From the NCBI GenBank assembly GCA_024137785.1, contig JAHRHZ010000013.1:11434425-11498424 (forward strand): 64,000 nucleotides of DNA. Direction: 5' to 3'. The stretch's first letter is position 1. Each line of letters begins with the position of its first letter. Source of the stretch: Ginglymostoma cirratum. Taxonomy: Eukaryota. Positions 53,101 to 56,590 of this stretch are shown here, piece by piece. The notes under the pieces were generated by a model, which worked only from the letters and a program-made list of their open reading frames with translations, searched no databases and was not told the origin of the DNA. The position numbers and the translations under genes were made by a program.

Positions 53101-53353
53101 ACCTGTTAAAGCTTCTGTCCATATTTTTAAACGTTTAAAGAATAAGATTGTTGATGGCTAGCCTCTAAATGTTGGCAATTACATTTCTTGCGTAATTAGT
53201 TCAATTTCGTTTGAACTAAACGGAAGTTGAATAAATGCTTGTTTACATGTCCCAAATTTCACAACTGAGTGCTAGAAAGTATATGATAATACTTTACAGC
53301 ATTTTTAAATAATGGCAGATTATGTTAAATAAGATAAATACGAAATGGAAGTC

Positions 53354-53459
53354 AATTCTGAGGAAGGGTCACCGGACCCGAAACTTTAATTCTGATTTTT
53401 TCTTCACAGATGCTGCCAGACCCGCTGAACTCTTCCAGCAACTTTTACTTCTGTTCATT
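53354..53459 (+). mobile_element. Short Penelope-derived element with hammerhead core and 11-bp TSD
   Basis: AAATGGAAGTC at 53343-53353 and 53460-53470. CTGAGGA 53358-53364, stem GGGTC/GACCC, GAAA 53380-53383. Confidence 0.85.
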
Positions 53460-53882
53460 AAATGGAAGTCGTTTAGGCAATGTTATTAATAAGCATGTTC
53501 TTGCAACCCCGTGTCCGTGTTCTTTTTAACAAAATCGAGATTGCCCCCATCTACTGAGATAAGGCAGAAAAATTGTAATGATCAGAAGTTTGCAATATTT
53601 TAAGCGTTTAAATCTGAGCAGGTAAAATGGTTAATGTTCGTGTACCGAAGTGGTAAATCGAAATTTAAAATTTAATTCGTTTCAGTAACATTGCAGAAAC
53701 CATAGTTTTGTAGGCTGTTCGCTTGAAAAGTATTATGAACAGCTTATCATATGAGAGGAAATTAAATCGAAACCTCATGTCACTGCCAGTCTCGGGAGCC
53801 GGAAATATAAAATTGCCAGGGGGAAAATTCTCTTCCCCGAATAAATTGCTCGAGACTGAAAAGATGTATTGAAGGTCCTGAC

Positions 53883-53990
53883 CTGAGTTTATTAAAATAA
53901 CGGTGTGTGGCGCTTTGTAAGGGGCGTCTCCTTAGCGGGAGGTTGATCAAAACCCGCAGCACGCCGCAGGTCATGAATATGAGAGTATCG
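53883..53990 (-). other. Candidate first exon of a minus-strand gene (TSS position approximate)
   Basis: Lies just downstream of two minus-oriented CCAAT boxes and a GC box, and ends at CTCAG|gtcagg (53883/53882). Confidence 0.4.
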
Positions 53991-54019
53991 GGTGCGTCCG
54001 CATTCTCCACCCTTTACGC

Positions 54020-54400
54020 AGACATCCCGCCCCCTATCTCTTATTGGATGTGGTTTGCTATTTATCGCCTTGTTATTGGTAGTTGTGCCGGAGCAGGCGA
54101 CCAAAAAAGGCGGTGCCTGTCCAGTGACGCGCCTTTATTATAATAAGAACGTCCATTCCAATTGTGACGTTACGCAGCCTTAGCCATTCCGAGGAGCCGT
54201 CTCCGCCCGCTGCGCGGGCGGGGTGATGGCGTCACCGACCGCGTCACAATACCACGCCCTGTGTGGCGGCCGGACCCAAACGTTGCGAACCCCGGCCAAT
54301 CAGGACGCGGCATGCAAATAAGCGGCCGCAAAGGCCAATGGAAAGTTGCTCCGCCTGCTGGAGGCCCACCTGCCCCACCAACTCCTCCTCCTCCCTAGGT
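54020..54400. promoter_or_regulatory. CpG-island promoter, apparently bidirectional
   Basis: GC boxes 54026 and 54216; ATTGG 54043 and 54075; CCAAT 54158, 54296 and 54335; SRE-like ATCACCCCGC (minus, 54218-54227); CRE-like TGACG/CGTCA sites; KLF CCACGCCC 54252; octamer ATGCAAAT 54312-54319. Confidence 0.85.
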
Positions 54401-54935
54401 CTCTCAGATTTATGTTTAGTTCAACCACTCAATTAACCCGTGGAATGTAATACACATGCCCCGCCATACATTAGACAAGTGTTCGTTAATGATTGCTTGA
54501 GGCCTTTTATTGTTATATTATTTAGATCTCACAAATAAAATTAACCGAATTACTTCTGCAATTGATTCACGCAAATCGTTTTGCATTAAATCAGAGATGA
54601 TATTTTATACAATAAATAATTACAAACAGCTTATCCCATAATGATTGCACAATTAAACATAGTCGAATTACGACAACTCCTTATTCAAGTTTGGAAACGT
54701 TACGACGCATGATGCAAATCGATCCATTCTACGAACGAATTTAAATATTCCGGTTTAGATTTTAATAAGGCATCAGCAATAACTAACCAGAACCCCATGT
54801 AGCATAAGTAATCAGTTTTGTACTTATTGAACGGTAACCTGCGTGAACACCGTATTTATACTTTTGCTAGTTAACTGCATGAAAGATTGCAATTGTGAAA
54901 TCTTTGCCTTAGCACAAATAACCATTTCTGCATTT

Positions 54936-55028
54936 CTGATGAAGGGTTTAGGCCCGAAACGTCAAGTTTTCCTGCTCCTATGATGCTGCTTGACCTGCTG
55001 TGTTCATCCAGCCCCATGCTTGTTATCT
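54936..55028 (+). mobile_element. Short Penelope-derived element with intact minimal hammerhead core and TSD
   Basis: CTGATGA (54936-54942)-A-GGGT-ttag-GCCC-GAAA (54956-54959)-CGTC. TGCATTTC at 54929-54936 and 55029-55036. Confidence 0.85.
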
Positions 55029-56590
55029 TGCATTTCCTTTCTTAACGTGTTTTCAAAATTCGTGCTAAAAACGTGTCTAACTCTGTCTATATACTTTTGA
55101 GGACGATCTCCCCTCCCGTTCAGTTAAAAACGTATGGTCAAGGAAAACAGAGAACAAACAAAAAATAGAATTGGTAAAATAAAGTAAAATCGATAGAACT
55201 CGTTTAGACCAATTTAAGCCCCGGTTGGTTTTCCTTTCCGATCAAGTCCATTCAAGAATGTCATTATGTCCGGCAATGAAAACGCTGATTTTAATTTTAA
55301 GTGTCAATGGTCGAGTGGGGCTGAGCGGGAGGTGTTTGCTTTTGAAGGGAACAGCGTGTTATTTCCCTGCAACGAGAAGCTTGTCCACTAGCCCCATCCC
55401 AACTCTTAGGATCCTCTCCTCTGTTCGGCTCCTTGCACCGTGACTCCTGCCCGAAACCATTCGGGTTGCTGTCAAAGGCGGCAGCTGGGAAGGGCAGTTC
55501 AGGCGGATGGTTAGATCTCACACGCCCCCCTCCCCATCCCCCGACAAGGCAGGCGAGTTGGGGGAAAGAGAGGAAATTGGCACCGCTGGTGATCAAAGTG
55601 GGCTGCTGGACAGGGGCAGGGGAAGTCCTAACGCATCTTTGTGGGGCCCAGGAGGAACATCCCTATTCCTCTTGGCGCACAAGGAAACTGCGATAAGGAA
55701 AAAGAAATAAACTTAGCCGGACCTCCTGTGGTCAGAAGGCCGCCAGCTCCTACATTTGGCGAACCAGAGACTGTCAACCTGCAGTTTAAATTGTATGGAA
55801 GTGTCATTGATTTAATAGGGATACAAAGTCAGCAGTTAAATCCGAGCTTCCTTCCTTGGGGAGGGCAGGCTTTCTCTGACTGATTTCAGCCTTGTGGGGG
55901 AAGATGTGGTACAAAGTCCTGTCTACACTATTCTATCCAAATGGAGTTATGTTAAAATATCCTTTTCAGGTCAGATTGCCTCAAGGATTCTCCTACTCAT
56001 CCACCATCTCTCCAGGAATTCCACAAATATCACAAAATAATAGCTATTAATTTGGGACACAGACTCATAGTGCCTCCCACCCCAACTCCTTGCACAAAAT
56101 ATATCCTGCAGTCTTTAAACGAATTTGGTGAATCTCCATATGCCATACAAAAACTTAATGCATTAATTTCACAAGGATCACTCGATTGAAAGTGGTCAGA
56201 TTCTAAAATAATTCAGATAACTCTAGCTCGTAATGTATAAGGCAGTACCTAACAGTGCACTGGATTTGTCGGGTCTGATCTAGTGCTTCCTCGACAGACT
56301 AATCCAAAAGTATTGCTTTCATACCAGTTGACAGCCATGCCTAGAAGCTACTGTTATTTATTCCAAAGACAATTATTTTCAAATCCATCTTCTTCTCATG
56401 ATATTTCACACTAGAGTAATAATATATTGAATTAGGGATCTTTGGGAGTTGCTGCAATTTAATTAAGTCTGTCAAAATTTAATTGAAGGGTTCACAGGTA
56501 ATAAACCACTAAGATGATTTGCAGCTCTCATCTGAACTCTTGAGATTAAATTACAGCTATTGCTTACTCACCACTATTATTTTATGATGC

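Follow-up and report, generated by a model that had tools for sequence, protein, structure and literature searches.

Short hammerhead-bearing insertions in Ginglymostoma cirratum DNA as candidate terminal modules of Penelope-like elements with a clustered 5' edge

A 64,000-nucleotide stretch of Ginglymostoma cirratum DNA (GenBank assembly GCA_024137785.1, contig JAHRHZ010000013.1, positions 11,434,425 to 11,498,424 of the forward strand; hereafter the window) contains dispersed insertions of about 100 bp that begin at or near a minimal hammerhead ribozyme motif, and the question raised by two of them, at 53.3 and 54.9 kb, is what such insertions are and what sets their common beginning. An initial annotation, made from the sequence of the window, proposed a retrozyme-like system of non-autonomous units or, alternatively, 3' ends with truncations clustered at the ribozyme, in either case mobilised by a Penelope reverse transcriptase (RT); of these options the second gave the best fit. 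In the reading to which a modest preference is given here, the inserts are the terminal module of endonuclease-positive Penelope-like elements (PLEs), integrated as short run-off cDNAs from an RNA that begins just ahead of the ribozyme. The elements themselves are the expected product of a known class, and the fixed 5' edge is the mechanistically useful detail.

The insert at 53.3 kb (53354-53459, + strand; 106 bp, subfamily A) is bracketed by the exact 11-bp direct repeat AAATGGAAGTC (left copy 53343-53353, right copy 53460-53470, both +), a target site duplication (TSD) of a length reached or exceeded by exact matches at 0.9% of random sites (n = 1,500, searched in a box of equal size, 55 x 80 nt). 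Its first base is the start of helix I of a minimal type I hammerhead motif (53354-53391, +; helix I 53354-53357/53388-53391, core 53358-53364, helix II 53366-53370/53375-53379, GAAA 53380-53383). Contigs of four public runs were aligned to window positions 53000-55400 at 80% likeness, and in X1 and X13, the DNA runs of two relatives, orthologous contigs entered this insert from both flanks, showing it to be common to both. The body of the second insert (54937-55028, +; subfamily B) was missing at the orthologous site in both relatives, where a contig joint links 54925 to 55029, and the insert is therefore the younger. The target copy of its 8-bp repeat (55029-55036, +) is the single copy of the relatives, and TGCATTTC recurs exactly at 54929-54936 and 55029-55036, a repeat length attained at 9% of random sites. 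The left junction (54926-54936, +) is composed of 3 nt and the left repeat, overlaps helix I, and occupies the place of eight different bases in the relatives. Either a TSD was later altered, or target-like 5' bases of the element were joined with loss of eight target bases; the second reading is favoured, because helix I falls within the left repeat and the alignment of family contigs begins at 54931-54934. Of the two insertions initially described as clean and TSD-flanked, that at 53.3 kb fully deserved the description, and that at 54.9 kb did not. A further copy of subfamily A (23898-23997, +) lies inside an older repeat resembling a long interspersed nuclear element (LINE), with an 8-bp TSD containing one mismatch (23890-23897 and 23998-24005), and deletion of this copy together with one 8-bp repeat left a junction that aligns with three other LINE-like copies in the window. 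The TSDs, the empty site in two relatives and the restored LINE together support retro-insertion. Both relatives also have nine extra bases at window position 54672, which points to a small deletion in the window lineage 250 nt from the younger insert.

A descriptor of the form CUGANGA, stem II, GAAA matched the window exactly twice, at 53.3 and 54.9 kb, against a mean of 0.03 and a maximum of 1 in 100 shuffled sequences; the bare CUGANGA heptamer occurred at chance level (37 versus 39.5). Among the copies in the window, a full minimal type I hammerhead was retained only at 54.9 kb (54932-54967, +; helix I 54932-54935/54964-54967, core 54936-54942, helix II 54944-54947/54952-54955, GAAA 54956-54959), with an extra base before helix II, a G10.1-C11.1 pair, an ACGU palindrome replacing helix III, an NUH triplet and a 4-bp helix I. 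Its GUC triplet, already recognised in the initial annotation, ends at 54963, after which cleavage is predicted, and descriptor and anatomy together support the assignment to Penelope-type minimal hammerheads. In keeping with the proposed stem II, helix II was paired in 31 of 32 cells over eight motifs of the window (a count that leaves out the row of L046, an element from another organism discussed below), with both-sided changes at three pairs, and the covariation score of the MAFFT alignment was attained by 4 of 500 shuffles in a control that ignores relatedness. Rfam gave no hammerhead match in the window at E values up to 5, the whole units folded no better than shuffled sequences (z -0.5 and +0.4), and at 54.9 kb neither the monomer nor the co-fold of the motif took the hammerhead form at minimum energy. 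At 53.3 kb, C and U follow GAAA in place of the C-G palindrome and helices I and II are kept; with the helix III palindrome broken, this hammerhead is likely inactive. The motifs at 23.9, 29.3 and 31.1 kb are damaged, and the ribozyme would be a passenger in these copies, most of which have decayed.

The family is very large and has sharp limits: 26,727 and 40,089 contigs were aligned from the two DNA runs, respectively, and the summed depth, which is not a copy number, was about 10^6 on both elements versus 5-50 in most flank bins. The other two runs, guessed to be RNA, gave family contigs and no flank, from which nothing can be inferred on expression or circles. A 21-nt family motif had no matches in viral contigs; of its 45 matches in metagenome contigs, none extended into the family (24 scored over the motif alone, the rest nowhere).

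That 5' ends cluster at the ribozyme motif was confirmed by the loose-end contigs of both relatives and by the starts of copies in the window. Loose ends before 53356 were found in 816 of 5,560 partly aligned contigs in X1 and in 1,390 of 12,064 in X13. Upstream of this point the consensus was an A/T background and then CAG (agreement 0.35 and 0.34, respectively), with no C or G in the first 27 upstream letters, and loose ends inside the element agreed at 0.53-0.73. In simulations, an upstream sequence common to 10% of the 816 made the consensus show C or G in 97% of runs. Because the contigs share no upstream sequence beyond CAG, copies that reach helix I mostly end there. Counted from the first C of the core, the window copies start at -4 (53.3 kb) and -8 (23.9 kb), both bounded by TSDs, and at -10 or +1 (54.9 kb), and in a head-to-head palindrome at 38.4 kb both arms begin at the motif's front edge. 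Wherever a copy has the predicted cleavage site, it is found uncut about 30 nt within the insert; with the edge this far upstream of it, the edge was not made by self-cleavage. The papers searched and read describe neither a 5' edge fixed at helix I nor PLE products of strong-stop type, and the family may already be catalogued in Repbase or Dfam. One pair of helix I at 53.3 kb (53354-53357, 53388-53391) differs on both sides from the loose-end consensus with pairing kept, which may be a subfamily trait.

The inserts had initially been described as little more than the core and a short tail; in fact, of about 105 nt the core accounts for about 38, and most of the remainder is a conserved 65-75 nt behind it. 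Two classes of 3' end occur, one about 65-80 nt past the G of GAAA and the other some 30 nt beyond that, and only part of the copies carry the tail. Inverted partners occur in the window at 38.4 and 30.3 kb, and opposite-strand joints were found in at least 35 contigs of X1 and at least 53 of X13 among the 15 joints listed. Inverted 5' copies with a one-sided tail of 30-40 bp are a described PLE pattern (PMC8557442, PMC3846280).

An inverted copy of the family 3' tail (24297-24333, -), whose score against the 30.3-kb tail was attained by none of 2,000 shuffles, directly heads a degenerate RT fragment with stops and frameshifts (24367-24595, +). In tblastn, 9 of 17 long RT/GIY-YIG proteins matched the window at 24367-24501 alone with E < 0.05 (best E 3e-4), and a weaker colinear piece followed in the next frame; three of the 17 were scanned for domains, giving RT in all three and GIY-YIG in two. 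Direct database searches with single frames of the remnant found nothing. The remnant is thus tentatively of Penelope type, and matches proteins with a Zn-finger linker (Neptune/Nematis type), the sole group compared. The Penelope RT that the initial annotation saw at 24.3 kb is weakly supported by this tblastn evidence; as the mobilising copy, this remnant is excluded by its stops and frameshifts. A second link came from L046, a stretch in a metagenome-assembled genome (MAG) record and the sole match of the motif search in genome contigs. It carries the same motif on the sense strand, about 90 nt past the stop codon that ends an open reading frame (ORF) containing a GIY-YIG domain above the Pfam cut-off; its helix I is different and fully paired. 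L046 also holds an RT piece with named coral relatives, 84 aa long, which gave no match to the 24.3-kb remnant. Positions 1900-3083 of this contig, from a bacterial MAG record, have the make-up of an animal-type PLE (GIY-YIG ORF, hammerhead, inverted RT piece), and the contig is likely host contamination; an AT run lies about 30 nt ahead of its helix I.

The one-sided tails, the inverted partners, the degenerate RT remnant and the GIY-YIG element with the same motif argue for terminal modules of endonuclease-positive PLEs. The junctions also agree with such modules, being short TSDs (11 bp exact at 53.3 kb; 8 bp with one mismatch and a restored LINE at 23.9 kb) or, at 54.9 kb, an altered junction, and the same is true of the one-end tails with inverted 5' partners in the window and at joints in the relatives and, more weakly, of the inverted tail ahead of the RT remnant.

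As to mechanism, insertion was likely carried out by the element's own RT and GIY-YIG endonuclease, in the form of short run-off cDNAs. The RNA would start where an initiator-like motif overlaps helix I; if the RT then primed at the start-site copy nearest the 5' end of this RNA, the cDNA would run off after about 100-140 nt, like a strong-stop product, and two such products from opposite strands would yield head-to-head palindromes with the tail on one arm. PLE promoters and transcription starts have been located within the terminal repeat (PMC2377424, PMC3846280). Among the closest known systems is PAc, a Poseidon element of the anole Anolis (Frangieh et al. 2024, PMC11167929), whose protein nicks AT-rich DNA, with both strands nicked and extended. 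In PAc, reverse transcription is primed at two internal sites, which delimit the tail and lie about 110-150 nt past the hammerhead; measured within an ORF whose beginning is at stem II, they fall at 111-118 nt and at a point further in. Mutation of the ribozyme leaves insertion normal, and the main template is uncleaved RNA (PMC11167929). The inserts resemble PAc in having a hammerhead about 100-150 nt ahead of two tail-defining 3' ends, and uncleaved template and extension of both nicked strands are the PAc features to which they were likened. PAc differs in being a full-length Poseidon studied in vitro, whereas the remnant here matched Zn-finger-linker proteins, and the main text of that study describes no fixed 5' end.

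A fuller version of this proposal, which is put forward tentatively, is that PLE RNA in this lineage starts at the first strand of helix I, that internal priming turns its 5'-most 100-140 nt into directly integrating strong-stop-like cDNAs, and that these might form a population of many thousands of copies, resembling short interspersed nuclear elements (SINEs) and having no master gene, in which inverted pairs represent two cDNAs from opposite nicks. How PLEs transpose and what part the minimal hammerhead plays are described as open questions (PMC7761336, PMC8557442). If the proposal is true, the genome holds a fossil map of the points at which PLE transcription starts and priming takes place. 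The short copies offer a direct test of the RNA start position and of the origin of inverted ends. Their occurrence in thousands, with the 5' edge fixed and the cleavage site uncut, argues against self-cleavage making the template ends in vivo, in agreement with the single in vitro study. Presence/absence differences such as that of the 54.9-kb insert could be used as phylogenetic markers.

Several points weigh against the preferred reading. The CAG-TT, CATT and CAG-CT letters at the edge are putative initiators, read as such by eye. In Drosophila virilis, Penelope starts about 120 nt upstream of helix I and has an intron ending at helix I (PMC2377424, PMC4209133), and the CAG before helix I here could by analogy be a splice acceptor; this is weakened because a spliced exon would be expected as shared upstream sequence, and none was seen. 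Copies at 50.0 and 30.4 kb start further inside, and that at 31.1 kb seems to run upstream. The spread of 5' ends was seen in the 24 of 805 loose-end rows listed, and several rare upstream sequences would escape the simulation. The contigs come from relatives that differ by about 4-7% in the flanks, and contigs collapse young, identical long copies. The covariation control, with its neglect of relatedness, was made on an alignment in which two rows are misaligned by one column; helix I is fully paired in 2 of the 8 window motifs only; and a full-length parent element from this lineage was not obtained.

The same PLE identity evidence is shared by the nearest rival, in which the RT primes at the 3' end of the element on a long RNA and is halted, or the intermediate is resolved, right after a folded or protein-bound hammerhead has been copied, making the edge a truncation hot spot. 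The edge coincides with a fold boundary in several subfamilies, and some scatter of starts (-4, -8, about +5 to +8) suits such stopping. RTs usually stall on meeting the 3' foot of a structure; here, by contrast, the fold was copied in its entirety, and the units, as noted, gave folds no better than those of shuffled sequences. Folding of the PAc ribozyme requires bound protein, as this rival would have it, but 5' truncation of the PAc template shortened the product in vitro, so that the RT can copy through the motif (PMC11167929). Overall, a truncation hot spot is considered unlikely, though it ranks first among the rivals.

That the copies stem from dedicated SINE-like masters, non-autonomous units about 100-140 nt long that arose from PLE ends and were moved in trans, is quite improbable and is not needed to explain the data. 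The very high abundance and the sharp fall in depth at the limits of the elements would be expected of such masters, and non-autonomous PLE derivatives have been published for Chlamys (PMC8557442). Nevertheless, at least three to four subfamilies, 55-79% alike, have the same edge and would require independent masters, the RT remnant is headed by the same tail, and priming in PAc depends on sequence reaching as far as 172 nt into the ORF (PMC11167929), past the ends of the inserts, which makes the short copies unlikely templates.

Very doubtful, in turn, is an origin in which the two terminal repeats of a full-length insertion recombined and a solo module stayed behind, like a solo long terminal repeat (LTR). 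Solo pseudo-LTRs (pLTRs) were reported in Adineta (PMC3846280), and TSD-flanked units with a fixed 5' edge would be expected if the RNA starts at helix I; however, very many full-length insertions and recombination over about 100 bp would be required, inverted pairs joined at helix I are left unexplained, and no longer form was present at the young 54.9-kb site in either relative.

A true non-LTR retrozyme, in which self-cleaved, circularised monomer RNAs are reverse-transcribed and inserted, has in its favour the intact 54.9-kb motif with GUC triplet and ACGU palindrome, head-to-tail joints in X13 (among the rows listed, at least eight unit-to-unit, with 1-3 contigs each, and one motif-to-motif) and tandem hammerhead repeats reported in one chondrichthyan (bioRxiv 10.64898/2026.07.22.740005), but it is extremely improbable, since the cut site is at neither end and lies about 30 nt inside the inserts, the ends are not circularly permuted, the copies are monomers or inverted pairs, helix III is missing, and tandem joints came to a few dozen contigs at most among the rows listed, versus 40,089 aligned. 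The retrozyme-like system of the initial annotation was given up on these grounds. Tandem repeats with a hammerhead in each unit, which characterise non-LTR retrozymes along with a canonical type I hammerhead and monomers bounded by cleavage sites, were found at 0 of 8 loci in the window. Metazoan non-LTR retrozymes resemble the inserts in their type I hammerhead, lack of coding capacity and low GC, in being pLTR-related and likely moved by PLE machinery, and in occurring as monomers also; they differ in being defined by repeats of about 150-450 bp in tandem, by canonical hammerheads and by expression as circular RNA, whereas the inserts here are of about 100 bp, dispersed, and carry a minimal motif with an uncut site (PMC7229834, bioRxiv 10.64898/2026.07.22.740005). 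In the one chondrichthyan for which non-LTR retrozymes are reported, their mean length is 363 bp (bioRxiv 10.64898/2026.07.22.740005). A plant LTR retrozyme, with LTRs, a type III hammerhead, a primer binding site, a polypurine tract and a 4-bp TSD, was excluded by the type I strand order, the lack of terminal repeats and TSDs of 8-11 bp. In one relative, a few contigs (joints at 54931-54964 and 53398-53446 to 54933-54984) couple one unit head-to-tail with another whose start is at helix I; in one case the motif is joined to itself with 12 letters between, a period of about 46 nt. Such head-to-tail joints are possible seeds of tandem, dimer-competent hammerhead arrays.

Under the preferred reading of PLE terminal modules, the inserts stand closest to solo minimal hammerheads (min-HHR), which are mostly single and dispersed, 'probably related to truncated PLEs', and occur in thousands in fish, coelacanth and frog (Cervera and De la Pena 2014, PMC4209133). 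Both lack helix III, with a palindromic 15.2-16.2, and have an extra base before helix II, a G10.1-C11.1 pair, a 4-bp helix I, several families per genome and some opposite-strand pairs; helix II is 4-5 bp here and 7-8 bp there, and the results and discussion of that paper include no TSD-bounded units, no clustered 5' edge and no named cartilaginous fish. Complex insertions of endonuclease-positive PLEs, with inverted pLTRs and partial tandems, share the head-to-head palindromes, one-end tail and TSDs of 8-10 bp, as well as some microhomology 5' junctions and TATA and initiator-like motifs in the pLTR (PMC3846280, PMC8557442); here, in contrast, an ORF-less module is dominant and its copy number very high.

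In total, BLAST and a profile from six copies placed seven family members in the window (23.9, 29.3, 30.3, 31.1, 50.0, 53.3 and 54.9 kb), forming several subfamilies, plus the more distant palindrome at 38.4 kb. The related copies initially listed were recovered at 23898, 29205, 31050 and 50066; their count was too low, a seventh member at 30.3-30.45 kb having been overlooked. The copy at 29205-29311 (-) belongs to subfamily A. That at 30301-30447 (-) is without a core and has the 3' tail and a short inverted partner (30414-30447, +). A divergent copy with tail (31050-31180, -) is preceded by C-rich sequence and a TATA-like heptamer, its upstream extent not being fixed; in the adjoining stretch (31181-31260, -) the heptamer lies, beside a C-rich run, about 24 nt before an initiator-like or splice-acceptor-like CAG that abuts helix I, and no coding match was found in the sequence upstream of this copy. 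The palindrome consists of a left arm with a damaged core and no tail (38344-38430, -; distant subfamily) and a right arm (38436-38560, +; core at 38440) with an apparent run-on of about 30 nt past the paired part, the tail, whose end is approximate. The subfamily A copy at 50066-50152 (+) starts at helix II, without CUGANGA, and has a weak 7-bp TSD with one mismatch. No significant TSD was found at 29.3, 31.1 or 50.0 kb or at the palindrome. The 50.0-kb copy seems to be inserted in a putative tRNA-like SINE head (49990-50170), which is present as a single copy in the window.

Between the two focal inserts lies a GC-rich island (53900-54400), conserved as a single copy in both relatives, with several CCAAT-like boxes and an octamer, ATGCAAAT; the island is probably a promoter. 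Ten ORFs of the window had no Pfam matches. A 94-codon open frame at 12427-12711 (-), likewise without a Pfam match, has protein-like composition and is possibly a host-gene exon, and a purine-rich minisatellite with a period of about 26 nt occupies 35551-35833.

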